Origin: Candidatus Latescibacterota bacterium
GTDB lineage: Bacteria > Latescibacterota > UBA2968
Length of the DNA: 64,000 nt
NCBI GenBank assembly: GCA_965205975.1
Contig: OZ242195.1
Span: forward strand, 2,944,001-3,008,000
Reading direction: 5' to 3'
In this document: positions 1-61,186 of the stretch, piece by piece
How the letters are laid out: each line of letters begins with the position of its first letter
Numbering within the stretch: the stretch's first letter is position 1
Position numbers and translations under genes: made by a program
The notes under the pieces: model-generated
Told to the model about the DNA's origin: nothing
The model's database searches: none
The model's input: only the letters and a program-made list of their open reading frames with translations

Positions 1-3000
1 ACGCAGGACCCGATAATGCGCGTGGGGATTTACGGCAACGAGAATATGTACGTATTGCGCCATCTTGCCGAAGAAGAAATCAAACAAGAATTGGAAGCAC
101 TCAAAGGCGTAGCTGCTGCGCGTGTGAAAGGCGGACTCGAAGAAGAAATTCGGGTTGAGATCAGCGAGAGGCAATTGGCACTGATGGGACTCAATATCAA
201 CACCATCAACCGACGATTGCAAGAGGAAAATGTCAACCTGGCCGGCGGCAGCTTGTTAGACGGACAGACACAATACCTCGTGCGTACGCTGAATGAATTT
301 CGCACCATTGACGAAATTGCCAATCTGGTAGTAGGCGACCGCAACAATATTGAAATTCGGGTAAAGGATGTGGGACAGGTTTATCGCACGCACAAAGAGC
401 GGGAGATCATCACGCGGGTCAATGGTGTAGAAAGTGTAGAAATCGAAATTTTTAAGGAAGCCGACGCCAATATCGTGGCGACAGCACAGCGCGTACGCGA
501 CCGCCTGTTTGGCACGCCCGAACAATTGGCATACATAGAAAAACTCAAAGCGGGCGAAATCGAAGCAGCCAAAGCCAACGACCGGCGGGAACAGGTGCGG
601 CAATTTGTGCAGATGAAAGAAATGACGAGTTTTATCGCTTTTACATTGCCCGAAGATGTGGCTATGGAACTGCTGTCCGATCAATCGACATTTATTGAAT
701 CATCGATCAATGAGGTCAAACAAACCGCGGTGATAGGTGGGTTGTTGGCAATACTGGTCCTGTACATCTTTCTTCGCAATCCGTCTCACACCGCTATTGT
801 GGGACTCGCCATCCCGATTTCAATTGTGGCGACATTTGCCCCTATGAACATCTTTGGCGTATCCCTGAATATCATGTCTCTGGGCGGGTTGGCTCTCGGT
901 ATCGGAATGCTGGTTGACAATGCCATTGTCGTATTGGAAAGCATTTTTAGATGCCGCGAAGAAGGCGACGATATGATTGCGGCCACCATCCGGGGAACAG
1001 GGGAAGTCGGCGGGGCGGTTTTTGCATCCACGCTGACAACTGTGGCGGTATTTTTTCCCATTGTATTTGTCGAGGGCGTGGCCGGGCAGATTTTTGGCGA
1101 CATGGCACTAACCGTTGTCTTTTCACTCCTGGCATCTCTGGGCGTCGCGCTATTCTTTATCCCCATGCTGGCTTCGCGGCAAGTGCATCTGTCACGCGGC
1201 GATAGCGAAGGACAGGGCGGGCGTCTGATGCAGTCTGAAGTATTGCAATTGCGTTCAGTCGCGTGGTTACTCGAAGGCATGGGTCTGAAAAACAGGGACG
1301 AAAAGGCGCTTCAATATCACGCCATAAATTTTAGCACGCTGTTGATGCGCGTGCCAATTGGCTTTATCTATTTGTTGGGCGAATACGTTGCCCGCACATT
1401 GTGGCTTGCAAGTGTAATCGCGATCGTGGCACTCAAAGCCGTATTCACCGTATTGGCGATTCTTCTATACCCTATCATCTATCCCGGATGGGGATTTTAC
1501 TGTTGGCTCGGTTCCGGACCATTATGGCGTCGTGAAATAAATCGCCTGTGGGGACCTCTATGCGCCTGGACTGAGGAGCGCGACCTGTTTGGCAAAGCAT
1601 GGGTACGGATAATATGGGACGATTTGCTGGCATTTGTGACGCCCCAAAATTTGGGACGCGACCTGAGTGTACAAACGAAATGGACAGGTAGGACATTGAA
1701 GCGTCTGTTCCGCTGGGTCTGGGAGCGCGCGATCTGGAAGCGCGTTTTAAAAATCGCACCGGTGCTCCTCGGCGCGGCAGGTGTTTTGCTGCTCTTTGTC
1801 CTCGGCGCAGTTTATTTTCTTCTTCGATTCCTGATCTTTACAACACTCATCCTGGTAGGCAAAATACTGATTCTGACACTCATGTTTGTGTTTTTAACCG
1901 GATTGGTCGCATTGCTGTTAATCGCCCTTGTCCTGTTGCCCCTCCTCGCGCCAGTGCTATTTTTGTTTGAGCGCGGTTTTGCAGCCATTCGGCTTGCTTA
2001 CACGCCTTTTATCCGCTGGGCTTTGCACAACAGACTGAGCATTATAGCGGGTGCTGTGGTGCCCTTTGCAATATGCTGGATGGTCTTGCTGCCCCGATTG
2101 GGCAATGAATTGATCCCCCAGGTACATCAGGGCGAATTTAATGTGGATATTGGTTTGCCCGTAGGCACGCCGCTCGAAATGACTGATGAAACCCTGAAAC
2201 TCATCGAATCGCGGGTGATGGATGCTTATGATGTAGGTGCGATTTCTTCGACCGTTGGCGTGGATAAAACCGATATCGCATCGTCTGATCAAGGCGAGCA
2301 CACCGGGGTTGTTTCCGTGGTACTGGAGGATATCGAAACAGAGAACCCCCAAAATGTAATGGCGGGTTGGGGACAAGATCTCCTGACATTGCCCGCGCGT
2401 ATTTGGGGAGGCATCAGGGGGGAAAGTGTTTTGGCACAGCGCGAAGACGCATTGATGGCTGATTTGCGAAACAGACTCTCGGATTTGCCGCAGATAAAAG
2501 CCGATTTTTCACGCCCCGCACTATTTAGTTTTAAGACGCCTATAGAAGTGGAAATTCGCGGATACGATCTGCCAACATTGACCCAATTGGGACGCGAAGC
2601 CGAGCGGGTAATGAGCGAAATTCCCGGACTTTACGATGTAAAATCGAGCCTTCAGCGCGGCAATCCGGAAGTGCAAATTGTCTATAAGCGCGACTTGTTG
2701 GCAAAATACAACTTAAATGTGCGTCAGGTCGCCTCGCTGGTGCGCGAAAAAGTACAGGGCAATGTGGTAACGCGATTTCGAGAAGCCGACCGGCGCATTG
2801 ATGTACTGGTGCGCGTAGATGAGGCTGACCGCGCCGGAGTAACTGAGTTGCGTCGGCTGGTGGTGAACCCGGGGCGACAGCAAGTGCCCATTCGCCTATC
2901 TGCAGTGGCCGATATTGAAGTACACGAAGGACCCAGTGAAATTCGGCGCATAGATCAACAGCGCGCGGTTCTAATTTCGGCCAATGTGAGCGGTATAGAT

Positions 3001-3597
3001 CTGGGAACGATGACAGCTATGATTCAGCGAGCATTGGAAACAATGGAAGTGCCCCAGGATGTATCGATGGTCATTGGCGGACAAAACAAGGAAATGGAGA
3101 CATCGTTGAACAGTTTGACCTTTGCATTGGGCCTCGCAATTTTTCTCGTGTACATCGTAATGGCCTCCCAATTTGAATCATTCCTCCATCCATTCGTAAT
3201 TATGTTTAGCATTCCGTTGGCACTAATTGGCGTAATCGTCATTCTATTTCTCACCGGCATACCTCTCTCGGTAGTGGTCTTTTTGGGCGTTATCATGCTG
3301 GCGGGCATTGTCGTGAACAATGCCATCGTACTCGTAGATTATATCAACCACCTGCGGCGCAGTGGAATGTCTAAATTGGAAGCAATTGTGCAGGCAGGCG
3401 AAGTGCGGTTGCGCCCCATCTTGATGACCACATCAACTACCGTACTGGGATTATTGCCCATGGCACTCGGCCTGGGCGATGGCGCAGAAATCCGCACCCC
3501 AATGGCCATCACCGTCGTCGCCGGACTAATCAGTTCCACGATTTTAACACTGGTAATTATTCCAACGGTATATTCTCTAATGGACCGCGGCGAATGA
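1..3597 (+). CDS. AcrB/AcrD/AcrF-family RND transporter permease, 5'-truncated by the window edge
   Basis: Frame is open from base 1. TM4 motif GMLVDNAIVVLE, TM10 GIVVNNAIVLVD, RLRPILMTT and LIPQVHQGEF are present. Confidence 0.95.
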   Translation, partial: TQDPIMRVGIYGNENMYVLRHLAEEEIKQELEALKGVAAARVKGGLEEEIRVEISERQLALMGLNINTINRRLQEENVNLAGGSLLDGQTQYLVRTLNEFRTIDEIANLVVGDRNNIEIRVKDVGQVYRTHKEREIITRVNGVESVEIEIFKEADANIVATAQRVRDRLFGTPEQLAYIEKLKAGEIEAAKANDRREQVRQFVQMKEMTSFIAFTLPEDVAMELLSDQSTFIESSINEVKQTAVIGGLLAILVLYIFLRNPSHTAIVGLAIPISIVATFAPMNIFGVSLNIMSLGGLALGIGMLVDNAIVVLESIFRCREEGDDMIAATIRGTGEVGGAVFASTLTTVAVFFPIVFVEGVAGQIFGDMALTVVFSLLASLGVALFFIPMLASRQVHLSRGDSEGQGGRLMQSEVLQLRSVAWLLEGMGLKNRDEKALQYHAINFSTLLMRVPIGFIYLLGEYVARTLWLASVIAIVALKAVFTVLAILLYPIIYPGWGFYCWLGSGPLWRREINRLWGPLCAWTEERDLFGKAWVRIIWDDLLAFVTPQNLGRDLSVQTKWTGRTLKRLFRWVWERAIWKRVLKIAPVLLGAAGVLLLFVLGAVYFLLRFLIFTTLILVGKILILTLMFVFLTGLVALLLIALVLLPLLAPVLFLFERGFAAIRLAYTPFIRWALHNRLSIIAGAVVPFAICWMVLLPRLGNELIPQVHQGEFNVDIGLPVGTPLEMTDETLKLIESRVMDAYDVGAISSTVGVDKTDIASSDQGEHTGVVSVVLEDIETENPQNVMAGWGQDLLTLPARIWGGIRGESVLAQREDALMADLRNRLSDLPQIKADFSRPALFSFKTPIEVEIRGYDLPTLTQLGREAERVMSEIPGLYDVKSSLQRGNPEVQIVYKRDLLAKYNLNVRQVASLVREKVQGNVVTRFREADRRIDVLVRVDEADRAGVTELRRLVVNPGRQQVPIRLSAVADIEVHEGPSEIRRIDQQRAVLISANVSGIDLGTMTAMIQRALETMEVPQDVSMVIGGQNKEMETSLNSLTFALGLAIFLVYIVMASQFESFLHPFVIMFSIPLALIGVIVILFLTGIPLSVVVFLGVIMLAGIVVNNAIVLVDYINHLRRSGMSKLEAIVQAGEVRLRPILMTTSTTVLGLLPMALGLGDGAEIRTPMAITVVAGLISSTILTLVIIPTVYSLMDRGE

Positions 3598-3600
3598 ACC

Positions 3601-3665
3601 GTTACCAGTTGTCAGTCCCAACCCCTCAACCCCGGTGTAATGCGGGGTAACTGACCACTGACTAC
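3601..3665. repeat. ~65 bp hairpin-forming element with 7-nt-period arms (copy 1)
   Basis: gttgtcagtcccaacc...tgcggggtaactgaccactgactac; similar to 37151-37228. Confidence 0.75.
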
Positions 3666-3818
3666 TTTTTCCAATTGACTTTTGGCAACTTTTTATTTTC
3701 TTAAGCACTTGAAATTTTTATGGCAAGTAAACAAATACTCGGTAACTTTTTGCGCTTTTTTTCGTCTAACCCTTGTAACAACGATAGTCACCCTATTTGC
3801 CGAAACATGGAGAATTGA

Positions 3819-5192
3819 ATGATGCGTTTTAGATATATCGCAGTATTGGCAATAATCTTTGCCCATGTGAATACAAGTGCTCAGGAAGAGCGAAGAGAAA
3901 TGCGCCTGACGCTAAATGAATGCGTGGAGATCTCGCTGACGAGCAGTGCCCAGATCGAGCAATTTAAGTACACAGTTGCGATTGCTGAGACCCAGGTAGA
4001 TAATGCGCGAAATAGTTTCTTCCCGACCACTTCTAATATGTCATGGAGCATCAGCAGAGGTGTTCAGGGACCTCGTGAAGGGCAGGTTCTGGATCAGACG
4101 ACGGGTACGCTGGTACAGTTATTGGGGGAAGACCGCATTACCGGTGGACAGAATTTCAGAATTGGTGGCCTGACCATGCCGATTTATGACGGTCAAATTA
4201 TCTCCCAGCTATCGAGCGCGAAAAACAGCCTGATGCAAACGCAAATGCAACAAACTGGCAATCGCCAAACGATCATTTTTCAGACCAAACAGCGCTATTT
4301 TCAACTTTTGCAGACGATTAAACTATTAGAAGTCCAACAAGAGCGCGTACGAGTATCTGAAGAAAGCCTGCGCAGAGCAGAGACATTGTATGAGATTGGG
4401 TCCGCGGCAATTTTACAGGTGACGAATGCAAGATCAAATCTGGCGGGTTTGCGCGCAACCCTGATTCAGCGAGAAAATGATGTACGCATCGCCCAGTCGA
4501 ACCTGGCATTTACAATGGGTCTGGGCACGGATGTAGATATTATTCCATCAGAAGAAGAGTTTGAACTTCTGTCTCCCCAATATTCAGAGTCTGATGCACT
4601 GTCTATAGCCCTTAAAGAACACCCCGACATCCTGGACAGCAAGTACGGTATGCTGGCATCCCGAGACACTTATAATGCAACGAGGAAAAGTTTGTACCAT
4701 CCCAGAATAACAATGAACATGAATGCCTATAGCTGGAGTATCGGTAAGGATGAGGAATTTGGCGGTATAGAAGACCTATTCCTCAAGAACTATGGCTATG
4801 GTATTGGTCTCAGTGTGAACATGCCCATTTTTAACTTCAACACGAGCAACAACTTGAAACGCCAAAAGCTACAATACTTGCTCAGCCAGGAGCGGTTAGA
4901 CCAGGCCAAACGACAAAAAGCATTAACCATTCGACAGCGCTATCTCAACCTGGAGCGCTTTCGGCGTTTGATTGAAGCAAATGAAGTGGCAGTGGAAGCG
5001 GCTGAAGAAAATTTCAAGCTGGAAGAAGAGCGGTATAATTTTGGCGGGGGAACATTCCTCGAGCGATTGACTGCTCAGCGCGATTTGTTTGATGCGCGCA
5101 ATAATCTGGTGCAGTCAAAATACAACTATTTGATCGAAATGGCGAATTTAGAAAACGAAGTCGGCACACCTGTTGTCGGAAATCCTGAATAA
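3819..5192 (+). CDS. TolC-family outer membrane efflux protein
   Basis: Signal peptide, LTLNECVEISL, two OEP-like repeats (AETLYEIG; EEERYNFG); follows the RND pump. Confidence 0.9.
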   Translation: MMRFRYIAVLAIIFAHVNTSAQEERREMRLTLNECVEISLTSSAQIEQFKYTVAIAETQVDNARNSFFPTTSNMSWSISRGVQGPREGQVLDQTTGTLVQLLGEDRITGGQNFRIGGLTMPIYDGQIISQLSSAKNSLMQTQMQQTGNRQTIIFQTKQRYFQLLQTIKLLEVQQERVRVSEESLRRAETLYEIGSAAILQVTNARSNLAGLRATLIQRENDVRIAQSNLAFTMGLGTDVDIIPSEEEFELLSPQYSESDALSIALKEHPDILDSKYGMLASRDTYNATRKSLYHPRITMNMNAYSWSIGKDEEFGGIEDLFLKNYGYGIGLSVNMPIFNFNTSNNLKRQKLQYLLSQERLDQAKRQKALTIRQRYLNLERFRRLIEANEVAVEAAEENFKLEEERYNFGGGTFLERLTAQRDLFDARNNLVQSKYNYLIEMANLENEVGTPVVGNPE

Positions 5193-5207
5193 CACGGAGG
5201 CGAGTTT

Positions 5208-5666
5208 ATGGGTATGTTTTATCGAACTGGTGTGGGATTGGTTGCGGCTGCTCTGATCTTGAGCATGGCTGTACCTGCCCAGGCTGTGGGTAAGGACTTT
5301 TTGATGCGATCAAAATTTCACAGCGCGCTGATGTTTGGCCTGGGTGGCGTTCTTGTTAAGCAAGCATTCGACGCAAAAAAAGAGGCCAATGATGCTTATG
5401 ATCTTTACAAACAAGCCAGTAACGCTACAGACGCACGAAGTTTTTACGATAATTCCAAGCGTCACGACACCCGCGCCGCAGTATTGGGTGTAGCCGGTGG
5501 TGCAACCATTCTTTTTGCCGTGCATCTATTTATGAAAGAAGATGAGAGTGGTTTGCCTCCCCCAAAGATGGAACGAGGCATTGTGAACATCAAGGGTGTG
5601 GCAGTAGATATAAAAGGCGATGTGTTTCAAAGAAAGATGCAGGTACAGATAAAAAAAGGATTTTAA
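5208..5666 (+). CDS. Hypothetical exported or membrane protein
   Basis: GGAGG RBS, signal peptide ending AQA, hydrophobic segments. Confidence 0.75.
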   Translation: MGMFYRTGVGLVAAALILSMAVPAQAVGKDFLMRSKFHSALMFGLGGVLVKQAFDAKKEANDAYDLYKQASNATDARSFYDNSKRHDTRAAVLGVAGGATILFAVHLFMKEDESGLPPPKMERGIVNIKGVAVDIKGDVFQRKMQVQIKKGF

Positions 5667-5694
5667 AAACTGAAAAGCAAAAATAAAGGAAAGC

Positions 5695-5730
5695 AAAGGG
5701 ACGATACTTACAACGTATCGTCCCTTTTTT
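5695..5730. terminator. Intrinsic terminator between convergent genes, probably bidirectional
   Basis: aaagggacgatac-ttacaac-gtatcgtcccttt stem followed by a T run. Confidence 0.85.
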
Positions 5731-5737
5731 ATCAAAT

Positions 5738-6967
5738 TTAGCAGCCTTCAAATAACGCGATTGCACGAGTATATTCCTGCATCCACTGGGCTACCTCTCG
5801 GGAGGGTGAAAAACGGGTCTGTGCTGACTGTCTTGCTGCTTCGCCGAGTTGAGTACGGAGAACCTCATTTTCAACCAAGAGACTCAAGCACTCTGCCAAA
5901 TTATCGACGTTTTCAGGTGGTACGAGAAGCCCTGTAACCCGATCTTCAATCAATGCGCGTGCGCCATCAATGTCGGATGCAACAATCGGAAGCCCCGCTC
6001 CCATCGCTTCAAGCAGGCTATTTGGCGATCCTTCATAAAGCGACGGAAATGCGTAGATGTCCATTTCTTTTAAAAATGGCATCACATAGCGGTGAGCAAC
6101 GCCACCAGTAAATGTTATATGGGACTCTAAGTTTAGTTCTTTGATGCGATCTTCCCATAATTTTGCTTCCTGCTTATCGTGGATCACCCCGACTGCAAGC
6201 AGATGCGCGTGCGGATGCTTGCAATGTACCTGAGCAAATGCTTCTATAAGATGGTGAAAGCCCTTTACGCGACGTAAAACACTTGCGGTTCCAATCAGAC
6301 ATTTTCCTCGCGATTTCAAATCTGCGAGCATCGCACCAAACATACGCAGGACACCGCTATGATCACCTTTCGCATTGGCGAGACGAAATGAAACAAACTC
6401 GGTAGGATCAAAAGCATTTGGTAGAACTGTTGACATGGAGATATCCGTGATCTGCTTTGCCATGCCGAGATATTCCTCTGTCACAGATGTTACGAGATCG
6501 GCATGCTCCAATATCCAGACCAGTGTAGGAACCATCCTGCAATCGAAGCGAGTTGTCACCACATCTCCCCCTCGAAGGCTGACGACGACGGGGCGGTTTG
6601 CGGCTCGCGCAGCAAGAACAGCAATCAAACCTGGGGGAAGCGCAAAAATTCCATGAAACAGGTCAAAATTGATTTCTGAATGGAGTTTCTCAATATAAAA
6701 CCCAATTTCTCGCAGTTCAGACGGATCGGGATAATTACCGAAAGATCGTTTACTGAGAGATGGGTAAGTTCGATGGACCACAAGACCATCTTCAACCGAT
6801 GACTTCACATCTTCACCTACGGTTATACTTCCCGGTGTGATTACATGGACATCGACATTTTGGGCGGCAAGATTGCGTGCGATCCGACGAGTCGCAGTGG
6901 CGACGCCACCTATGCAGACAGGTGGGTACTGATAAGTGATGATACAAACTCTGATTTTTCGTGACAT
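5738..6967 (-). CDS. Glycosyltransferase family 4 (GT-B fold)
   Basis: N-terminal YPP..GG, RRVKG, FPSLYEGSPNSLLEAM (E-x7-E). Start placed at MSRKIRV. Confidence 0.92.
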   Translation of the reverse strand: MSRKIRVCIITYQYPPVCIGGVATATRRIARNLAAQNVDVHVITPGSITVGEDVKSSVEDGLVVHRTYPSLSKRSFGNYPDPSELREIGFYIEKLHSEINFDLFHGIFALPPGLIAVLAARAANRPVVVSLRGGDVVTTRFDCRMVPTLVWILEHADLVTSVTEEYLGMAKQITDISMSTVLPNAFDPTEFVSFRLANAKGDHSGVLRMFGAMLADLKSRGKCLIGTASVLRRVKGFHHLIEAFAQVHCKHPHAHLLAVGVIHDKQEAKLWEDRIKELNLESHITFTGGVAHRYVMPFLKEMDIYAFPSLYEGSPNSLLEAMGAGLPIVASDIDGARALIEDRVTGLLVPPENVDNLAECLSLLVENEVLRTQLGEAARQSAQTRFSPSREVAQWMQEYTRAIALFEGC

Positions 6968-7048
6968 AGACCTTGCTCCCAATTATTGAAATGAATTGAT
7001 CGAAATGTATTCTGTATCCCGTACCAATCTTGCGATATATCTGAAAAT

Positions 7049-7083
7049 TTGGGTTGGAAGAGTGATCAGATCTCCCAACCCAA
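7049..7083 (-). terminator. Stem-loop downstream of the peptide gene (attenuator or mRNA stabiliser)
   Basis: ttgggttggaaga...tctcccaacccaa inverted repeat; only a weak U tract on the minus strand. Confidence 0.6.
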
Positions 7084-7119
7084 TGAGGCTAAATTCAAAA
7101 GTCGTTGGATGTATCCTCA

Positions 7120-7233
7120 TCAACAAGAACAGTCGTGGGGGTACCAATCCACATCAAGAAGCCATCCCCCCCAATTCCAACCCGTCAGGTCCTCAATGCG
7201 ACCAAGTCGTTTAACACTGGGAGTCTGGTACAT
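7120..7233 (-). CDS. RiPP precursor peptide with lasso-type leader, 37 aa (MYQTPSVKRLGRIEDLTGWNWGGWLLDVDWYPHDCSC); absent from the ORF track
   Basis: Translated by hand. RBS AAAGGAGGTGA at 7239-7249, double TGA stop, leader matches YxxPx(L/V)xxxGxxxxxTx, adjacent to a PqqD/RRE gene. Confidence 0.88.
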   Translation of the reverse strand: MYQTPSVKRLGRIEDLTGWNWGGWLLDVDWYPHDCSC

Positions 7234-7266
7234 ACGTATCACCTCCTTTCTTATAGATTTTCGGGC

Positions 7267-7310
7267 AAAGTACAGAAATAACCACTGACCGGTCAATGCG
7301 TTAGCTAACG
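7267..7310 (-). promoter_or_regulatory. Putative sigma-70 promoter of the precursor overlapped by two palindromes
   Basis: TTGACC (7296-7291), 18 nt, TACTTT (7272-7267); palindromes TGACCGGTCA (7286-7295) and CGTTAGCTAACG (7299-7310). Confidence 0.45.
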
Positions 7311-7378
7311 TTATGATTCCAACTGCTTTGCCCTATTTCTGATCTATCGCAATTGAATTCCACACTTAAAAAAAGAGC

Positions 7379-7698
7379 TCAAGTCTGAACCTGGATAAGG
7401 TGAAAGTCTTGTAGATCGTTCAACAAATTATCCAGATCTCGTTGCAGTATATTAGCGTCCACGTCAAACTCCGTTTGTAACTTGGCGAGGGTATCGCCTG
7501 GTTGGTCCACAGCCAACATTATCTCTATCATCTCTGTAGCTGTGGTATTCAGTTCAAAATATACTCCAGTCACTGTGTCAACCAGAAGGCCCTGTTCCTC
7601 AATACGCGAAAACTCAACGATGTATCGTGCTGCCCTGCAACACCGATGAAATCGCGTCCGATGTCAGGCAATGCTTGAATTTTTGAGATCCTCTCCAT
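7379..7698 (-). pseudogene. PqqD-family RiPP recognition element, apparently frameshifted
   Basis: The frame reading IVEFSRIEEQGLLVDTVTGVYFELNTTATEM...FDVDANILQRDLDNLLNDLQDFHLI is PqqD-like. The ATG with an AAGGAG RBS at 7698 is out of frame with it. Only 7379-7573 is open from a GTG. Confidence 0.75.
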
Positions 7699-7816
7699 AA
7701 TGCTCTCCTTAATCCCATTTCTTTGTGATCAATCACAAGCAGCCCATCCGATGCTTAAATAGCTGTCGAATTTGGGGCTACGCCCTGCTTTCGGTGCGTG
7801 CCTGTATTGCCTATGC

Positions 7817-10228
7817 TTATTCATTTTTTAACTCTTTCACGGGATCTGTTCGCACAATGCGTATGGTGTGATATGAAATTGCCGCAAGTGCCAAGGCGAT
7901 ACAGCCTATCGCTGGTCCCACGAAGTGCATTGGCTCCAGTGGCATTTGAAAAGGAAAGCGTTGCAAATACGCACGCATCGCAAAAAAGGCCAGGATGCAT
8001 CCAATTATACACCCAATGAATGCAAGACGAACTATGGGTAAGGACAGCAAAACAAAGAGGGAGTGTGTGGAAGCTCCCAGAACCTTGCGAACGCCAACTT
8101 CTTTTGTGCGGCGGGACAGCATGTGCAGGGCAAACCCGATCAATCCTACACAGGCGACAATAATCGCCATGAATGAAGCCGTATAGCCGATGGATTGATT
8201 TATCTTTCGGATATTTCGAGTAGAATTTGCCAATTCATCCTTCAAAAGACCGAACTGCGGTGTAACACCTAGCGCGATTTCTGACCAGATTTGCTTTAAT
8301 ATTCCCTTGGTTTCTGTTGCCATATCCGGTTGGAGGCGCACCAGAATAGCCCGAATCTTAGTTTCGGGGTCTTTGTGAATGACCAGGGGACCCATGGGGG
8401 GCAAAATATTTTGAAAATAAAAGTCAGAGATGACACCTACAACCTGGGGGTGCTCAACCTGTCCTACTTGAAATGGAAATGTCTGACCAAGTGCGTGCGT
8501 CCATTCAAATCGCTTTGCGAGGTGTTCGTTGACCAAAACCTCGTTGGTCGGTCCGTTTGGATCCAAATTCTTGCCAGCAACTAAATCCACACCGAGTGTC
8601 TTTAGAAAATCGCCGCGCACTTTATAATGCCAAACAATCACTTCTGAATCGGTCAGTTTTTGCATGCCTGGCGACGATAATACCGGAATACTATTCACAG
8701 CAACCAATCCGACAACACCTGGGAGTTGCTCTGCTTTTTGGCGAAATCGCTCGTAATAAACTTCTGCCTCATCCCCCAAGACTTTGGGTTGTATAACCAT
8801 CAAATGGCGCATATCGAATCCCCTATCCATATAAGTAAAGTGATCAATCCTCTGCACCATAATCGTGGAGGATATCATCAGAAATACAGCCACAGCAAAC
8901 TGAACAACCAGCAGAAATCGGCTCAGGAGTGCTCTTTGTCCCGGAGATGTTTCACCTTTGAGCGCATCTACGGGCTGAAGCCGCGACAACAGCCACGATG
9001 GGTAGAACCCAGCTAAAATTGCCAATAGCACAGGCAATACAAGAATGAACAGGAACACCGTCATATTCCATTGAAGCTGAGGCTTATAGTGAGGAAAGGG
9101 AAAGAGAGATGCAAAATGGGGAAGCAATAGTTCACTCGCGCTCAGCGCGGCCCCCATTGCGATAAAACAAAGAATCATCGACTCGAGAATCGTCTGTCCA
9201 ACAATATGGCGGCGAGTTGCACCCAAGGTCTTGCGAATGCCGACTTCCGTGCCGCGCGCCATGAGTCGACCAATGGTCACGATGCCAAAATTGACGGCTC
9301 CTACCATGAGCACCAGAATCCCCATGAAAGAAAGCAAGATTAGAAACTGCTGCGGTATGTTCATCACTTGAAGTCCCGACATCTCAAATTCAGATAACGC
9401 GGATAGGGGTTGAAGATGGATATGGATGGGAGACTCTTCCTTTCTCCATTGTCCTTCGGCGCGATAGTTGTCAATCTGTTTAGCAAAATAAGCATCTGAA
9501 AAGTAGGGCAATCGGCGCTTTATATGATCGGATGTAACATTTTCTTTTAGATATAAAAAAAGCATGCTATCAAATTCACTGAACTGATCAGAAGATGCAC
9601 GCTGAGTCATGTGCTGATACGGAATCAGCATATCAAATTGCAAACTTGAATAATCCGAAAACGTTTCGACCACACCGCTTATGGCAAAATGTTCCCGCGT
9701 ATTGTTTTGTACCAAAGTCATTGAAGTTCCAACCACGTCAGCTATCGCCCCATCACCCGCCAGTTTCTCAGCCAGTGTTCGAGAAATCAGAATATTTTGC
9801 GGATTTGATAGGGCCTCGCTATTCCCATAAAGCACGGAAAATGAAAACAATGATAAGAACGAGGGATCGACATACGCGGCATAATCCATCCGAAAATGTT
9901 CGTCTTCATAGAGATAAGTAAGACGTCTTGAACGATAACGACAGACCGTTCCCAATTCGCGCAACTCATCGGAGAGAAATGGCCCAGCATCGGAGCGAAA
10001 AGATGCGTTTCGCTGCTCCCATACGGTCTGACCGAGCGCATTAGTGCGATAGATCCAGAAAATTCGATCTGCGTTGTCGTGAAAATCATCCCGCGTGCGA
10101 TAGCGATCTTCCACAAGTACAAACACCATCAATGCACACGTAATGCCCAACACTAAACTCAATACACTCATCACACTGGCAATCCGGTCACGTTTGAGTC
10201 GTCGCCAAGCGATTTTGAGACTTTTCAT
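7817..10228 (-). CDS. ABC transporter permease, duplicated MacB_PCD/FtsX type
   Basis: LKIAWRRL, RGTEVGIRKTLGA, RRTKEVGVRKVLGA, C-terminal DPVKELKNE. Confidence 0.92.
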   Translation of the reverse strand: MKSLKIAWRRLKRDRIASVMSVLSLVLGITCALMVFVLVEDRYRTRDDFHDNADRIFWIYRTNALGQTVWEQRNASFRSDAGPFLSDELRELGTVCRYRSRRLTYLYEDEHFRMDYAAYVDPSFLSLFSFSVLYGNSEALSNPQNILISRTLAEKLAGDGAIADVVGTSMTLVQNNTREHFAISGVVETFSDYSSLQFDMLIPYQHMTQRASSDQFSEFDSMLFLYLKENVTSDHIKRRLPYFSDAYFAKQIDNYRAEGQWRKEESPIHIHLQPLSALSEFEMSGLQVMNIPQQFLILLSFMGILVLMVGAVNFGIVTIGRLMARGTEVGIRKTLGATRRHIVGQTILESMILCFIAMGAALSASELLLPHFASLFPFPHYKPQLQWNMTVFLFILVLPVLLAILAGFYPSWLLSRLQPVDALKGETSPGQRALLSRFLLVVQFAVAVFLMISSTIMVQRIDHFTYMDRGFDMRHLMVIQPKVLGDEAEVYYERFRQKAEQLPGVVGLVAVNSIPVLSSPGMQKLTDSEVIVWHYKVRGDFLKTLGVDLVAGKNLDPNGPTNEVLVNEHLAKRFEWTHALGQTFPFQVGQVEHPQVVGVISDFYFQNILPPMGPLVIHKDPETKIRAILVRLQPDMATETKGILKQIWSEIALGVTPQFGLLKDELANSTRNIRKINQSIGYTASFMAIIVACVGLIGFALHMLSRRTKEVGVRKVLGASTHSLFVLLSLPIVRLAFIGCIIGCILAFFAMRAYLQRFPFQMPLEPMHFVGPAIGCIALALAAISYHTIRIVRTDPVKELKNE

Positions 10229-10303
10229 TTTACGTCTCCAGTGGTCAGTTTTACTAAAGTTGTGCTCCGCTCTTTCTGAAAAAAATAAGGTGCATAATTT
10301 TAC

Positions 10304-10320
10304 AGCAATAACCGTGCCAA
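10304..10320 (-). promoter_or_regulatory. Sigma-54 (-24/-12) promoter
   Basis: Minus strand reads TTGGCACGGTTATTGCT, matching TGGCACG-N4-TTGC, ~75 nt upstream of the permease ATG. Confidence 0.85.
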
Positions 10321-10395
10321 AGTCATGAAAAAAAATTCAAATGCTGAAATAACAATAAGTTAAGAAAAATTTCTTAAAATTGATGTACGCGAAAG

Positions 10396-10432
10396 TGTCC
10401 GATTTTGGGACAGTAGTGTCCGAAAATGAACA
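10396..10432. promoter_or_regulatory. Tandem enhancer-like (bEBP) sites
   Basis: TGTCCGATTTTGGGACA and TGTCCGAAAATGAACA start 21 bp apart, 75-110 bp upstream of the -24 box, with an AT-rich spacer between. Confidence 0.65.
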
Positions 10433-14034: not shown

Positions 14035-14520
14035 TCACTGTGTTATTCCTGTCGCAAGTTCTCTAACTGACACTGTGAATCTCTGCCCAATTGCATGAGA
14101 CTTTGCCAAAGTAAGAAACTCTATTTCATCGCGAAGATCTTTCAACTTTATAGTCTCGTCGCTCAGCACTTGTCCGAAAAGCTTGAACCAAAACCACCGC
14201 TTCAGAAATATACTCGTAATATGGTTTGGCACCATCCCTATCTTACGCCACTTAGATGGGGTACTCTTGTGCATACCAATATGCTTTGCGACCTCATAGA
14301 ATGATGTCTCGCTGACATCACAAAGAAACTCCAACTCTACGAAGCTCAGGACTTCTGAAGACCCACAGATTTGGTTGGCAATTGCTTTGTGTATTCTGTC
14401 AATCTCATCCTGTGAGATTGCGACTGTCCCATCTGGCATCTTTTTAAGATGCAACTTCGGGACAAGCCAGGTTCGACCAGCGGCCCGATACTTGTAATTT
14501 TTCTCAATCAGGCGGCGCAT
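14035..14520 (-). CDS. MqsA-like HTH protein, putative antitoxin
   Basis: GAGGAG RBS 7 nt before ATG 14520; XRE-like HTH (SFYEVAKHIGMHKSTPSKWRK); overlaps the upstream small gene. Confidence 0.55.
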   Translation of the reverse strand: MRRLIEKNYKYRAAGRTWLVPKLHLKKMPDGTVAISQDEIDRIHKAIANQICGSSEVLSFVELEFLCDVSETSFYEVAKHIGMHKSTPSKWRKIGMVPNHITSIFLKRWFWFKLFGQVLSDETIKLKDLRDEIEFLTLAKSHAIGQRFTVSVRELATGITQ

Positions 14521-14881
14521 TTTCATTCTCCTCAAGAAAGCCTTCCGATCTGGCAAGAAGGCGTGCTGAACTTGCCGAAGTAACCGATGGCGCACCATCA
14601 GTGCCATCGTAAAAACAGTAAAGAATAGCGTAAAGCACTTCATCATCTTTGTGAAAGACTCTGATACATGCGTAGTATCCAGACCGTCCGCTCGAGTTTG
14701 AGGGTGCCCATACAGCAAGTTCCTTCACAGTTTCACTTGTGCTTTTTGTCCCGACTAATCGTCCAACTTTAATGATGTATTGCAGTTTCTGACGAGCGCG
14801 AGCATATCTATCTGTTTCTGGCTCGTGTTCAACTAAGACTCTATGTCTGGGTATAAGTCTTATGGCATTCAACCAATCCAT
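14504..14881 (-). CDS. Hypothetical 125-aa protein, putative toxin partner
   Basis: First gene of an overlapping pair; TTGACT-16-TAAATT lies 6 nt before the ATG, suggesting a leaderless transcript. No recognisable family. Confidence 0.5.
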   Translation of the reverse strand: MDWLNAIRLIPRHRVLVEHEPETDRYARARQKLQYIIKVGRLVGTKSTSETVKELAVWAPSNSSGRSGYYACIRVFHKDDEVLYAILYCFYDGTDGAPSVTSASSARLLARSEGFLEENENAPPD

Positions 14882-23232: not shown

Positions 23233-23729
23233 AACGCGCTCCCCGACTCTTCTACTTCTGGAAGATCCCTATACATGATATGCATATAATCTGCAAAACC
23301 ATGCTTTCTCCAAAATGAATATCCAACGGTATTCATAGAAGCCACTCGGAGTTCAACTCTGTCTATTCCCTGAGACCGAAACCAATCCAACATTTCATTT
23401 AACATCAACTCTCCAATTCCCTTTCTCCTGTGTTCAGAAGAAACAGCCAAATCTTGAATAGTGCCACAGATTTGCTTGACGAATACGGGAGGATATTTGT
23501 CAATTCTCGCTATTCCGAAGCCCATTGGCTTTGTATTCTCAACCGCCATAATCACAAGGGCATCCTCAGCCTCAATCAGTCTTTCCAGATTCTTACCCAT
23601 GCTTTCTCCCGCACCATCGGACAGAGTATATCTCGAATCAAACGGGACATGAAAATCCATGAGTTCTTTCCAGATCTCCAGTATAGCGGGTATGTCAGAT
23701 TTCAAAGCCCTAACAACTTCCACTTTCAT
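23229..23729 (-). CDS. GNAT acetyltransferase
   Basis: HRRKGIG, FWRKHGF; GGAGG RBS. Confidence 0.88.
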   Translation of the reverse strand: MKVEVVRALKSDIPAILEIWKELMDFHVPFDSRYTLSDGAGESMGKNLERLIEAEDALVIMAVENTKPMGFGIARIDKYPPVFVKQICGTIQDLAVSSEHRRKGIGELMLNEMLDWFRSQGIDRVELRVASMNTVGYSFWRKHGFADYMHIMYRDLPEVEESGSAL

Positions 23730-24555
23730 CCCCTCCAATATACGATGCGTCATTGACCACCTGCGTATATACGCCTGTTTTTGAAACCTCTGAAATTACA
23801 AAATCGAGAAAATCTATAGCCTCTTGTCTCGCATCCAATTCAATACCGTATTGCCATGCCAGAGCATTCCCCACCAAATCACGCCATCTCTCTCCATAGT
23901 TCTCCTGCACCCATGACGCAGCCATCTTCTTCGAACCAACAACGGAGCAAATCACAGTATGCAGTATTCGACACAGATTCAGAATGAAATACGCTTCATG
24001 GTGGCTATCCCTAAAATATTCTGGACTGGATTTTTTCGGCGCCCATTCCTGAAACAAATCTCGAACGCAGGCTTTTCGCACATCCTCAACATCAACCGGG
24101 GGCGACAGCTTCGTAAAACTCGGACCAAATAGCGCGATGGAATGGCTATAAAGAAAATATTTGTTGATTATCCATTCATTCCCATAGGGTGCCTCTGCAT
24201 AAAGGGTACAATCACCACCCCAGTACCAGGGCCGAGGCTCCGTTGGAGGCATAACACATGGGAGCATATCAACAGGCGTATAAGAACACTCTAACCGCCG
24301 TGCCCATTTCTCGAATTTTTCTTCTATCTCTCTGTGTAAACGTCCAATTGAATCGAGTTCACTTCGAGAAACAGGTCGATGCACAATCACTGTAATATCA
24401 ATATCACTGCTATGGTAGTTAAACGCTCCATGGGACAGCGAGCCGGTCAGATATATTCCGAGTACATTTTCTTCGAGAACGGGAAAAACGCCTTTAACAA
24501 AAAAGTCTATGATCTCGTTCACATCGGGATATTTCGTAAGATAGCTTGTAATCAT
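23710..24555 (-). CDS. Aminoglycoside adenylyltransferase-like nucleotidyltransferase (NTase plus DUF4111-type domain)
   Basis: GIYLTGSL...SDIDI, YFILNLCRIL, SKKMAASW. Start moved to MITSYL because the track's 5' extension overlaps other genes. Confidence 0.8.
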   Translation of the reverse strand: MITSYLTKYPDVNEIIDFFVKGVFPVLEENVLGIYLTGSLSHGAFNYHSSDIDITVIVHRPVSRSELDSIGRLHREIEEKFEKWARRLECSYTPVDMLPCVMPPTEPRPWYWGGDCTLYAEAPYGNEWIINKYFLYSHSIALFGPSFTKLSPPVDVEDVRKACVRDLFQEWAPKKSSPEYFRDSHHEAYFILNLCRILHTVICSVVGSKKMAASWVQENYGERWRDLVGNALAWQYGIELDARQEAIDFLDFVISEVSKTGVYTQVVNDASYIGGDESGSC

Positions 24556-24559
24556 AGAT

Positions 24560-24728
24560 TTATTTTGACCTATTCTCTTCCAGCCAATCAACCGCGAAAT
24601 CCACGACATCGCGTTGTGGCATGAGTTGACAACTCGCGAGACCGACCTTGCCATGACGCACCACATTCCCCGCGTCCGACTGCAAAAAATCCTCACCGAT
24701 GCGATCAAAATCCGAACTTTTATTTCAT
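24560..24728 (-). pseudogene. C-terminal remnant of an AAC(3)/YokD-family acetyltransferase
   Basis: Hand translation DFDRIGEDFLQSDAGNVVRHGKVGLASCQLMPQRDVVDFAVDWLEENRSK*; the upstream ATG at 24728 is out of frame. Confidence 0.72.
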
Positions 24729-24737
24729 ATAAGCCAC

Positions 24738-25082
24738 CTATTTCGCTGCAATCGCGACCATCTCTACAAGCGTACCTCCCTCCAGATTGACCTCCACACA
24801 GGCGCGCTGGGGCCAATTTTCGGCACCAATCCAGGCGTCCCAAACCGCGTTCAGGATGGGTTTCTTTGACATATCTGTGATATAGATCGTGACGGAAAGA
24901 AGACAAGACTTATCGGTTCCAGCCTCAGCGAGATTTGCGTCTAACTGTTCGAGTGCCTGTTGAGTCTGACTCTTGAGGTCTGCGGATACATCCGGTGCAG
25001 TGACAACTGTATAGACAATGCCATTGTGTTCAACGGACTTGCTGCGACCAAATGCCTTTCCCGGATATCGTTTGATAGTCAT
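24738..25082 (-). CDS. RidA/Rid-family (YoaB-like) protein
   Basis: QTQQAL, LNAVWDAW, PQRACV, LVEMVAIAA. Confidence 0.9.
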   Translation of the reverse strand: MTIKRYPGKAFGRSKSVEHNGIVYTVVTAPDVSADLKSQTQQALEQLDANLAEAGTDKSCLLSVTIYITDMSKKPILNAVWDAWIGAENWPQRACVEVNLEGGTLVEMVAIAAK

Positions 25083-59003: not shown

Positions 59004-59909
59004 CTAATTAAAACCCGGATATATGCCGCCTTTTCTGGGACTGTAAGGCAAAAATCGGGGATCATAATAAACCAAAGGCATTTTATTGTGAACATCGGTC
59101 TTAATCACTGCTGTTTTACCAGAATCTCCAGTTGTATTGCTTATAGCGAAATCATCCTCTCCAATATAACCTACTTTGATTTCCCACAGCCAGGCTGTGT
59201 TTCCTCTATTTTCTTTTCCTCTAATAAAATTACCCTCACGATCTCCCAAGACATATCTAAAGGTTATGTACACACCGGCCTTAGGCAAATGTCCCTTGGG
59301 CTTGTTACTTTCCAAAGCCATTTTCAATTCTACATCTACGGCGGGTGCTTTGAGTGGCAATAAATCAGGGTACGCATGAGGTCGATTACGCCTGTATAGG
59401 CCCTCTGATGATTTTGCTATACCACTTCCAAGCAAATTTCCCAACATAGATGAAAAATTTGCGAGTTCGACTAATTCTGTGACCACAGGAGATTGAGAGG
59501 ATATTAATTTTCGGTCAATAGTATCTAATACGCCATAAGCATACTCAACTGCATCAAGTAACACAATGCCCTCAATACCCATTAATTCTAACAGGGTTTG
59601 TTCATTTCTAATATTTAATCTATTAGGCTTTCGCGGCTTTAGAAATTCAGAATATTTAGAATTTTCCTCTAATGAAATCAACTCAGCCATTTGCACCAAA
59701 TCCGATAGTGAAAATCCCAGAGCATGGGCAATTTGATTAGCCACTTGAATGGTGGGTACACGCTCGCGTCGTTCTAATAGCCCCACCATTGTTCTATGGA
59801 TACCTGCTTGTTCGGCTAATTGTTCAAGTGTCAACTGCTGTTCTATGCGAACAGCTTTTATTATAGCAAGAAAATTTTGGATAACTGAATCCAATTGATT
59901 TTGCTCCAT
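59004..59909 (-). CDS. XRE/C-protein-like HTH fused to a putative PD-(D/E)xK restriction endonuclease
   Basis: N-terminal LTLEQLAEQAGIHRTMVGLLERRER.PT; C-terminal YPDLL...VELK; divergent from a C5 methyltransferase; AT-rich. Confidence 0.75.
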   Translation of the reverse strand: MEQNQLDSVIQNFLAIIKAVRIEQQLTLEQLAEQAGIHRTMVGLLERRERVPTIQVANQIAHALGFSLSDLVQMAELISLEENSKYSEFLKPRKPNRLNIRNEQTLLELMGIEGIVLLDAVEYAYGVLDTIDRKLISSQSPVVTELVELANFSSMLGNLLGSGIAKSSEGLYRRNRPHAYPDLLPLKAPAVDVELKMALESNKPKGHLPKAGVYITFRYVLGDREGNFIRGKENRGNTAWLWEIKVGYIGEDDFAISNTTGDSGKTAVIKTDVHNKMPLVYYDPRFLPYSPRKGGIYPGFN

Positions 59910-59965
59910 TCAACAACCCCTTAGATGATGTATAAAAAGTATCAGGATGTGAGCAATAAAAAACC

Positions 59966-59997
59966 TTGACAGCTTTTAAAAAAGAGACTATAGTCTC
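59966..59997 (+). promoter_or_regulatory. Sigma-70 promoter of the methyltransferase with a palindrome over the -10 box
   Basis: TTGACA (59966-59971), 17 nt, TATAGT (59989-59994); perfect palindrome GAGACTATAGTCTC (59984-59997). Confidence 0.8.
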
Positions 59998-60031
59998 CAC
60001 CGAGTACTAACCTTTCTCAGGGGATCTAATT

Positions 60032-61186
60032 ATGAAGCAAGCCAAAATTTTCGATCTTTTTTGCGGCACAGGTGGTTTTTCAAAAGGTTTTGAAAAGGTT
60101 GCCGATATTCAATATCAAACTGTTTTGGGTGTAGATTTATTACCTATTGCTGTTGAAACTTTTTGTTTTAACCACCAGGAAGCCTTTGGGATATGCAAAG
60201 ATATACGAACCCTGAGAAAAACGGCAGTTTCTGACATGCTAAAAATTAAAAGGGGAGAATTGGACTTAATTATTGGTGGTCCTCCTTGTCAAGGATTCTC
60301 TTCTATAAGACCTTTTCGCTCGTGTCAAGAGGACGATCCAAGAAATTCACTATTTGAGGAATATGCTTCATTTGTAAACTTTTTTCGGCCTAAAGCATTT
60401 GTGTTAGAAAATGTTATCGGTTTGGCAACGCATAAAAAGGGTTCTACAATAGAAATGATGGAGGAATGTTTCTATAAAATTGGATATGAATCTGACTGGA
60501 AAATTCTCAATACTGCTCATTTTGGTATTCCTCAGAAACGAGAACGATTGATATTTATAGGCGTCGTCAAAGGAAATATGCCCAAATTTCCTGTACCAAA
60601 TTACCAATATAAAGGGGCGACTATCGGCCATAAAAAGAAATTCAGAATGCTTTTACCAAAGGAGCCTGATCTTTTTACAAAATCAGAATTGAACCCTGCA
60701 ATAACCGTTATGGACGCAATTGATGATTTGCCTCCCGTTGAATCTGGCGAGAAAGCCACAGTATATGTCAACAAACCAAGAACGGAATATCAGCAGGCAA
60801 GAAGGAATGGAACCAAAATATTAACACTTCATGAAGCGACCAATCATTCGGGAAAAATGCTCGAAATAATACATCACGCGGGCAAAAACATCAATTCTAT
60901 TCCCAAACATCTAATAAGTAGTGGGTTTAGTTCTTGTTATTCGAGATTGGATGCAAATGAGCCTGCGGTAACGATAACGGTCAATTTTGTTCATCCTGCA
61001 TCTAATAGATGTATCCATCCCCTACAAAACCGCGCTCTTACACCCAGAGAAGGCGCACGCCTACAATCCTTTGATGATGATTTCATGTTTGCAGGTACTC
61101 GCTCACAAATCGTCAAACAAATAGGAAATGCAGTTCCACCTCTGTTGGGACAGCGCATCGGAGAAGCATTAGCTCCCGTGTTTTAA
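60032..61186 (+). CDS. DNA (cytosine-5)-methyltransferase
   Basis: DLFCGTGG, GGPPCQGFS, ENV, PQKRER, REGARLQSF, QIGNAVPP. Confidence 0.96.
   Translation: MKQAKIFDLFCGTGGFSKGFEKVADIQYQTVLGVDLLPIAVETFCFNHQEAFGICKDIRTLRKTAVSDMLKIKRGELDLIIGGPPCQGFSSIRPFRSCQEDDPRNSLFEEYASFVNFFRPKAFVLENVIGLATHKKGSTIEMMEECFYKIGYESDWKILNTAHFGIPQKRERLIFIGVVKGNMPKFPVPNYQYKGATIGHKKKFRMLLPKEPDLFTKSELNPAITVMDAIDDLPPVESGEKATVYVNKPRTEYQQARRNGTKILTLHEATNHSGKMLEIIHHAGKNINSIPKHLISSGFSSCYSRLDANEPAVTITVNFVHPASNRCIHPLQNRALTPREGARLQSFDDDFMFAGTRSQIVKQIGNAVPPLLGQRIGEALAPVF

Follow-up and report, generated by a model that had tools for sequence, protein, structure and literature searches.

The locus at positions 5738–10432 of the window, the 64,000-nucleotide stretch analyzed here (from contig OZ242195.1 of a Candidatus Latescibacterota bacterium), raises the question of how a peptide with a lasso-type leader could be matured where neither a cyclase nor a leader peptidase is encoded. 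Four co-oriented minus-strand units lie there, specifying a permease, a PqqD/RRE domain, a 37-aa peptide and a GT4 glycosyltransferase. The first-pass annotation had left a choice between a lasso peptide that is glycosylated and matured in trans, an undescribed RiPP type centered on a GT-B enzyme, and the relic of a larger cluster. The cyclase and peptidase genes of relatives, together with a deletion junction in the window, bear out the last of these, and we conclude with high confidence that the locus is the remnant of a lasso peptide operon of ordinary architecture after one recent deletion of ~3.55 kb.

The frame of the locus as first described, four co-oriented genes between a sigma-54 promoter and a terminator, proved real in profile, motif and repeat searches. 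The predicted –24/–12 promoter, in front of the operon at 10304–10319 (minus strand), is the only match in the window to TGGCACR-N4-TTGCW, a consensus with 38 matches in the genome. At the other end, between convergent genes, a perfect hairpin of 13 bp, T-rich in its tail on either strand (5695–5727), identical in the same-genus genome G007, is probably a bidirectional terminator. A 13-nt inverted repeat between the precursor and GT4 genes (7049–7083, minus strand) lies in a stretch conserved in G007 and could possibly form an mRNA-stabilizing or attenuating hairpin. Domains of a cyclase, a transglutaminase-like peptidase, a radical SAM enzyme or an ABC ATPase were indeed absent from the 55 window ORFs (20 + 35) scanned with Pfam.

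The permease gene (7817–10228, minus strand) is intact and encodes an 803-aa duplicated ABC permease of the ADOP/MacB-FtsX type (PF12704 and PF02687), scoring 285 bits against TIGR03434, below the cut-off of 622. The genome contains 22 other tblastn matches to it, and no ATPase gene lies beside it. The GT4 gene (5738–6967, minus strand) is likewise intact; its 409-aa product (P0078) was assigned to the retaining GT-B enzymes by PF00534 and other Pfam domains, as well as by PDB matches, and has an E-x7-E motif at residues 312–320.

The precursor gene (7120–7233, minus strand), with an AGGAGG site upstream, encodes an 18-aa leader and a 19-aa core. It scores 15.3 bits against NF033521, just below the cut-off of 19, and the leader weakly matches that of TbiA(alpha) in PDB 5v1v (E 1.1). 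The lasso register, Y-17/P-14/L or V-12/T-2 in the available text of PMC10368454, is kept by Y-17, P-14, V-12, G-8 and T-2, meaning that the leader first described as YxxPxL stands at Y, P, G and T while its motif is in fact YxxPxV. Compared with G007, the leader carries one amino-acid change in 18 codons and the core nine in 19. Across the three precursors on which our view of core diversity rests (P0087, P0088 and P0089), the acceptor Asp9 and the tail residues Cys17 and Cys19 are all invariant, and the core ring is predicted to be a Trp1-Asp9 macrolactam in the window and Trp1/Phe1-Asp9 among relatives.

The RRE gene (lasso B1/PqqD; 7379–7618, minus strand) matches PF05402 with 40.3 bits (cut-off 23.4) and NF033530 with 43.4 bits, below the cut-off of 70. 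It is truncated at its 5' end, lacking the ribosome site, the start and the first ~9 codons, so that the first in-frame GTG, at 7573, would yield 64 aa and not the 88 aa of the intact G007 orthologue (P0086). In front of it lies a fifth part, a 42-codon ORF (7570–7698) that begins with the first ~27 of ~622 codons of a lasso cyclase (7619–7698, minus strand) and then runs out of frame through RRE DNA to a stop at 7570. The stub was recognized by its identity to the start of the relatives' cyclase: 25 of 26 codons are identical in G007, and the first 27 residues are those of P0036. A frameshifted RRE, with a single base lost from a run of Gs, was ruled out: the ORF in front is the cyclase start and the RRE start is lost. 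The "repaired RRE" of the first-pass annotation would accordingly be a cyclase–RRE chimera rather than the native protein.

What the locus has lost can be read from G007, whose orthologous locus is ~3.55 kb longer between permease and RRE and carries a 622-aa Asn-synthetase-type cyclase (C), a lasso B2 peptidase and a UDP-glucuronate-4-epimerase-like enzyme. Contig C79 of G007 aligns to window positions 1–7618 (90.8% identical) and beyond 7618 continues with the intact RRE start, a 370-aa epimerase, B2 and the cyclase C-terminus. Contig C97 aligns to 7620–8532 (98% identical) and continues into the cyclase; the permease that immediately precedes that cyclase shares 97.7% identity with the last 237 permease codons of the window. 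The two cyclase pieces belong to one gene, because P0001 (622 aa) matches both, and the full gene order was pieced together from these two contigs, P0001 and the equal sizes of longest contigs. Computed from P0001 and L038, 3552 nt are missing at the junction (7618–7620), comprising the rest of the cyclase, B2, the NDP-sugar epimerase, and the RRE ribosome site with the first ~9 RRE codons. We found no repeat in the window that would account for the deletion.

The G007 B2 scores 35.5 bits against NF033537 (cut-off 33) and has the C-H-E residues; P0084 is likewise a B2, and a metagenome scan with B2 returned two distant loci (38%). The cyclase matches PF00733 with 69 bits and has an SGGIDSS loop and no N-terminal Cys, and the relatives' cyclases score 27.9–30.4 bits against NF033535, far below the cut-off of 525. 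A model (pLDDT 63, from an alignment rich in AsnB sequences) has a fold of the Asn-synthetase/beta-lactam-synthetase type, with no lasso cyclase among the fold matches listed, and the cyclase alignment had 0 matches among PDB sequences. Among 31 family and 168 phylum genomes, only G007 has the cyclase, apart from the stub in the window; a match in G087 was set aside, as it starts with Cys-Gly-Ile and is surrounded by polysaccharide genes. Locus searches of genome contigs, with cyclase P0002 and with the GT4, confirmed no loci in sets that possibly excluded this and very near genomes.

Could the 3.55 kb simply have been dropped during assembly of an organism that has the intact cluster? Every other sample with cover at the junction has the intact form: besides G007, the runs X5 and X6, from two studies, have loose ends here (X5 at both 7618 and 7620, X6 at 7620) that read on into the intact genes. 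The deleted allele was seen in one run, X1, possibly the source sample of this genome. Yet the X1 contig, independently built by Logan (2,794 nt, depth 76), spans 5940–8733 with 0 differences, no X1 loose end at 7618–7620 is among those listed, and no DNA of the lost cyclase and B2 parts occurs elsewhere in this single-contig genome. We therefore consider an artefact very improbable. Run X2 gives only traces of cover over 5700–7790, leaving the junction uncovered and the hole uninformative. On this sequence evidence the loss is a strain-level one, because a near-identical GT4 (P0077, 408 of 409 residues as in the window) pairs, by longest-contig size, with cyclase P0036, which runs past the junction. 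The intact state of the GT4, permease and precursor genes is explained by a recent deletion, which does not prove them idle.

Given a real deletion, the peptide might still be matured in trans by other enzymes of this genome, which encodes an Asn-synthetase-like orphan of 583 aa that lacks an N-terminal Cys (C1:1382658; 69.9 bits against NF033535, cut-off 525), an 89%-identical paralogue of the epimerase (C1:4332424–4333428) and two other PqqD-like domains. We give this almost no credence: the genome-wide search that had been advised found no B2 in the 98%-complete single contig (PF13471, NF033537 and a 7-sequence custom HMM, E ≤ 1), the RRE of the locus itself lacks a start, and the scanned neighbors of the orphan synthetase (DUF362, PPTase, ABC transporters, TamB) include no B2, RRE or precursor. 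The other PqqD domains adjoin a suf operon or sit on a radical SAM enzyme. No more credible is an undescribed RiPP type with the GT4 as main modifier of an RRE-delivered peptide, even though the genes for GT4, precursor and permease are whole, the in-frame GTG at 7573, overlapped by the stop of the stub, is a possible restart for the 64-aa RRE fragment, and members of the GT4 clade are found repeatedly next to peptide-maturation genes of several kinds. The four-gene unit was seen nowhere else, the one orthologous locus in the 40 other genomes searched having both C and B2, and GT4 cluster members on long contigs also occur with these genes. With a cyclase stub at the junction and a leader in exact lasso register, the intact orthologues largely refute a GT4-centered type.

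The remnant reading implies an ancestral operon with the order sigma-54 promoter, permease, C, B2, NDP-sugar epimerase, B1 (the RRE), precursor A and GT4, from which one recent deletion took nearly the whole of C, B2 and the epimerase in their entirety, and the beginning of B1. By analogy with established lasso chemistry, in the intact parent B1 would bind the YxxPxV leader, B2 would cut after Thr(-2)-Gly(-1), and C would use ATP to join the Trp1/Phe1 amine to Asp9, while Cys17 and Cys19 in the tail may pair as a class IV-like disulfide. The permease would presumably export the product with an ATPase encoded elsewhere. More tentatively, the epimerase might make UDP-galacturonate and the GT4 might place the uronic acid on the peptide, at the conserved Ser18, at Cys17/19 or at Trp6. 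The monoisotopic masses calculated for these products are 2070.84 for the cyclised G007 core, 2068.83 with the disulfide and 2244.86 with a single hexuronate, against 2332.95, 2330.93 and 2506.96 for the window core. The window copy is most likely dead; the precursor, if expressed here, would be neither cut nor cyclised, and therefore no lasso product is expected.

That the GT4 glycosylates the peptide at all is suggested by its operon position, the epimerase in the parent and the associations of its clade, and we put it at slightly short of an even chance. The window enzyme is 94% identical to that of G007 and 91–99.8% identical to the 10 cluster members compared. Read indirectly, from equal sizes of longest contigs, 6 of the 14 cluster members are co-located with a cyclase member, while one more shares a contig with B2 and RRE; on contigs above 20 kb, this genome's excepted, all six adjoin lasso core genes, and two of the seven cyclase records on such contigs have no GT4 member of matching size. 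The clade tally (9 of 14) leaves out two neighboring GT4s as non-clade. A broader proposal, toward which we are more skeptical, is that the parent makes a lasso with a tail disulfide and a GT4-added uronic acid, the GT4 clade being a lineage-specific, general RiPP glycosyltransferase plugged into many unrelated peptide clusters of these sponge-associated bacteria (lasso, radical SAM/SPASM, C39-exporter, subtilisin/TIGR04066).

Irrespective of the glycosylation step, the locus is a cautionary case, in which one recent deletion produced a "cyclase-free RiPP" and the fused stub imitates a frameshift, and it displays a symbiont natural-product cluster in the course of loss at strain level. Its value lies in the undescribed parent, a small lasso cluster (~8 kb) in which a GT4 and a sugar epimerase are retained and which, if the proposed chemistry is true, would supply peptide engineering with a soluble tailoring enzyme. 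We found no published account of the parent cluster in a search outside subscription journals, no literature on UDP-glucuronate epimerases in lasso clusters and, judging by title and abstract start, nothing relevant on uronic-acid RiPPs in sponge symbionts. A GT4-added uronic-acid sugar on a lasso with a tail disulfide was not found reported for lasso peptides.

Several known systems invite comparison. Glycocins have a double-glycine leader and a C39 peptidase-transporter. They use a GT2 S-glycosyltransferase, whereas the window has a GT4 and a lasso-type leader; the three C39 genes of this genome (G000) all lie outside the window. Among the closest systems, as far as the available text of 10.1101/2020.11.25.399105 describes them, are fusilassin and cellulassin (FusA/B/C/E), split-B lasso clusters with a Trp1-Glu9 ring. 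They share with the parent a separate RRE, leader peptidase and cyclase, Trp1 with an acceptor at position 9, YxxPx(L/V) and Thr(-2), but the parent has Asp9 instead of Glu9, two tail cysteines, a GT4 with an epimerase and a highly divergent cyclase, and the window copy has C and B2 deleted. Class IV lassos (LP2006, pandonodin, felipeptins) have one disulfide wholly in the tail (available text of PMC9266682), as Cys17/Cys19 might form here; the difference is that the Cys-x-Cys (Cys-Ser-Cys) stands at the extreme C-terminus, where the two cysteines might instead receive the sugar.

As to sugars, the davasin (igt) cluster is a lasso cluster with a glycosyltransferase, the deacetylase/GT2 membrane protein IgtG, shown to glycosylate (available text of PMC11912497). 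A Ser acceptor would be available here too (Ser18), but the enzymes are a predicted soluble GT4 and a predicted NDP-sugar epimerase, with nothing IgtG-like. Pseudomycoidins, modified by the kinase PsmK and the nucleotidyltransferase PsmN, are glycosylated lassos that carry the modified Ser near the C-terminus (PMC9266682, same portion), as the product of the parent may do; here, with neither kinase nor nucleotidyltransferase, the sugar would come from the GT4. By description, the window enzyme may be likened to Cao24 of the cacaoidin cluster, a GT4 proposed to add sugar at Tyr in a class V lanthipeptide (available text of PMC8068269). The glycosylated lassos found in print, so far as these texts go, comprise two systems, one using a GT2 and the other a nucleotidyltransferase. 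If the parent's GT4 and epimerase do act on its peptide, this short list would gain a retaining GT-B enzyme together with a charged sugar.

On the minus strand of 5738–10432 we found a permease gene (7817–10228; PF12704 and PF02687), a PqqD-like stretch corresponding to an RRE (7379–7618; PF05402, 40.3 bits), a 37-aa precursor ORF with a strong ribosome site (7120–7233) and a GT4 gene (5738–6967); a sigma-54 consensus match (10304–10319) and a perfect 13-bp hairpin (5695–5727) were also seen, mostly as described in the first-pass annotation. Its statement that the window encodes no cyclase, peptidase, radical SAM enzyme or ABC ATPase also held, cyclase, transglutaminase, radical SAM and ABC ATPase domains being found in none of the 55 window ORFs scanned. 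In the precursor, an 18-aa leader carries Tyr –17, Pro –14, Val –12, Gly –8 and Thr –2, the same positions as in the lasso-leader register described in the accessible part of PMC10368454, and Asp is core position 9. No start codon stands near the 5′ end of the RRE frame; in a different frame, a good ribosome site is followed by a 42-codon ORF that begins at 7698.

The GT4 has an orthologue (94% identical) in one of 40 other genomes, G007, of the same genus. There, contig C79 matches window positions 1–7618 at 90.8% and then departs into the missing genes: an intact RRE (88 aa), an NAD-dependent epimerase (370 aa, 83% identical to P0097, a protein named UDP-glucuronate 4-epimerase by its source), the leader peptidase B2 (166 aa, scoring above the cut-off of NF033537) and the terminal part of a larger gene. 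Contig C97 matches 7620–8532 at 98%, and the same start codon opens a 493-aa frame. Both gene pieces are spanned by P0001, a 622-aa cyclase from a protein collection; it has PF00733 and an SGGIDSS loop, lacks an N-terminal Cys, and its structure model matches beta-lactam and asparagine synthetases. The 42-codon ORF is therefore the cyclase start, and by computation some 3,552 nt of the intact cluster are missing from the window. The cluster is rare in the phylum, the cyclase occurring at high identity in one of 167 other genomes.

We compared four sequencing runs (X1, X2, X5 and X6) across the junction. A single contig of X1, which may be the source sample of this genome, covers 5940–8733 with zero differences. 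Loose ends occur at 7618 and 7620 in X5 and at 7620 in X6, with the letters of the intact RRE start and cyclase; in X2, the place of the junction is uncovered. In the protein collection, 6 of the 14 GT4 cluster members apparently share a contig with a cyclase member, as judged by equal longest-contig sizes. By the same pairing, one such contig also has B2 and a precursor identical to the window's at 36/37 residues, and a GT4 with 408/409 identities pairs with a cyclase reading past the junction; for two of seven long cyclase contigs, no GT4 row matched. In the 408/409 strain the called cyclase is a 252-aa fragment, and another cyclase was split in two, which may reflect further decay or sequencing errors.

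The headline reading of the first-pass annotation, a new RiPP class working without a cyclase, proved wrong: the cyclase and B2 of the orthologous G007 cluster and the 42-codon cyclase start speak strongly against it. We are confident that the locus is a truncated lasso cluster, in line with the option of a relic of a larger cluster, which the cyclase, B2, epimerase and intact RRE of G007 bear out. The remaining option, a lasso peptide matured in trans, fares poorly. The genome is a single contig of 5.56 Mb, 98% complete, and the proposed search for a transglutaminase-type leader peptidase gave no match to PF13471 or NF033537, nor any at E ≤ 1 to an HMM of seven lasso B2 proteins from the same phylum, so that maturation in trans would lack its peptidase. 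The parallel search for asparagine-synthetase genes returned four PF00733 matches: three are short, in ORFs of 267–357 aa that by their N-termini look like other PP-loop enzymes, and the fourth, of 583 aa, is an orphan whose neighbours include no lasso genes. No second precursor copy was found in this genome. The orphan (L011 8314–10065; G000:C1:1382300–1384100) has no N-terminal Cys, scores weakly against macrolactam cyclase models and has no RiPP genes among the neighbours scanned.

Since cyclase and B2 are lost and the RRE is clipped, this truncated copy is in all likelihood dead; a GTG at 7573, in frame and overlapping the stop of the stub, could yield a 64-aa RRE. The window copy misses three features of a working lasso cluster, and the parent (the intact cluster of relatives) has all that sequence can test. 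Between this genome and G007 the precursor leader differs at 1 of 18 residues and the core at 9 of 19, with Gly4, Gly5, Trp6, Asp9, Val10, Pro14, His15 and the terminal Cys-Ser-Cys kept: the leader is conserved and the core changes fast, a pattern typical of a RiPP working until recently. By standard lasso chemistry, the parent's leader would be cut behind its Thr-Gly, and a ring would form between Trp1 (or Phe1) and Asp9. In the parent, the epimerase lies between B2 and the RRE, with the GT4 coming after the precursor in a single promoter–terminator unit, an arrangement that suggests transfer of UDP-galacturonate onto the peptide. The proposal that the parent represents a genuinely new variant, a GT4/uronic-acid glycosylated lasso, is tentative and somewhat doubtful. 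The cluster epimerase (L038 9700–10812) shares 89% identity with a copy immediately behind the ATP synthase operon (G000:C1:4332424–4333428), which suggests that it was recently duplicated into the cluster; in L049 and L055, similar copies are located close to related GT4s.

Relatives of the GT4 (33–46% identity) are largely confined to its own genus (12 of 41 genomes), among radical SAM/SPASM maturases, RRE-M50 proteases, C39 transporters, subtilisin/TIGR04066 proteins and short ORFs. In five genomes, 9/14 clade GT4s had such a peptide-maturation marker within 10 kb; the figure was 21/67 for the remaining GT4 matches and 3.7% for random positions (counted without the GT4 of the window itself and without one of 83 rows, under the cut-off). 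Because the genomes are related to one another and the markers were picked after the neighbourhoods had been seen, these figures hint that clade GT4s modify peptides but are no test of it; the other five have no marker, and several stand among other sugar genes.

A cassette recurring at L043, L044, L046 and L049 (G008, G001 and G020) looks like an undescribed RiPP family: radical SAM/SPASM, an 83–97-aa acidic ORF, a 333-aa protein, an RRE-fused M50/daptide-like protease and a clade GT4, accompanied by S41 peptidase, methyltransferase or sugar genes. L047, L050 and L052 (G008, G001 and G002) are candidate glycosylated RiPP clusters, with a GT28–GT4 fusion, a second GT4, a 136–156-aa ORF of conserved N-terminus and a C39 peptidase–ABC exporter; similar GT4–C39 pairs occur at G000 C1:252440, 2667376 and 2808240. 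L008 (G000:C1:2488000–2501000) has two GT4 paralogues (42–44% to the window's), GT28, GT2, a heparinase-like protein, a double-DsbA protein and, between ABC permease genes, two secreted-looking, Cys-containing ORFs of 116–117 aa sharing an N-terminus. A second, unrelated lasso-type cluster, L090 (G001:C1:3265400–3274600), contains two RREs, cyclase, B2, an HPr-kinase-like protein, an ABC transporter, a GT2-like protein and a GT4 sharing 28% identity with the window's; the leader pattern found no precursor in it. Four further lasso clusters of the phylum (L088, L089, L091 and L092) have clear precursors, and insertion sequences break up L089 and L091.

Elsewhere in the window, an AcrB-type gene (16–3597) precedes a TolC-like gene (3819–5192); its ORF has 1193 aa vs 1358 in G007 because the window starts inside the gene. 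At 14035–14881, two overlapping minus-strand ORFs of 227 and 125 aa, neither with a Pfam match, correspond in place to a single 277-aa ORF of G007 and may be a frameshifted gene. A 398-aa nucleotidyltransferase (23710–24906), whose C-terminal domain is that of an aminoglycoside adenylyltransferase, neighbours NUDIX, GNAT and dCTP-deaminase genes. At 59004–61186, the genes of an HTH protein and a C5 cytosine DNA methylase run divergently, a possible restriction–modification remnant.

Sources label members of the GT4 and cyclase protein clusters as Gemmatimonadota MAG proteins, and among the better-matching runs, those whose label is visible are sponge metagenomes. Lasso clusters have been reported from marine Gemmatimonadota MAGs at large (PMC11316326), and a sponge metagenome survey mentions families of lasso clusters that have group transferases at their flanks, without characterising them (PMC9426513); we found no description of this cluster in the open literature (subscription journals and bioRxiv supplements aside). 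The predicted Trp1/Phe1–Asp9 ring resembles that of the Trp1–Glu9 lassos fusilassin and cellulassin, as far as 10.1101/2020.11.25.399105 could be consulted. A putative tail-only Cys–Cys disulfide would place the parent in class IV, to which the available text of PMC9266682 assigns lassos with a disulfide confined to the tail. A GT4 role has been proposed for the cacaoidin lanthipeptide cluster (PMC8068269, seen in part). In the portions of the sources at hand, glycosylated lassos on record use the nucleotidyltransferase PsmN (pseudomycoidins; PMC9266682) or the GT2-type IgtG (davasins; PMC11912497), whereas the parent locus has a GT4.
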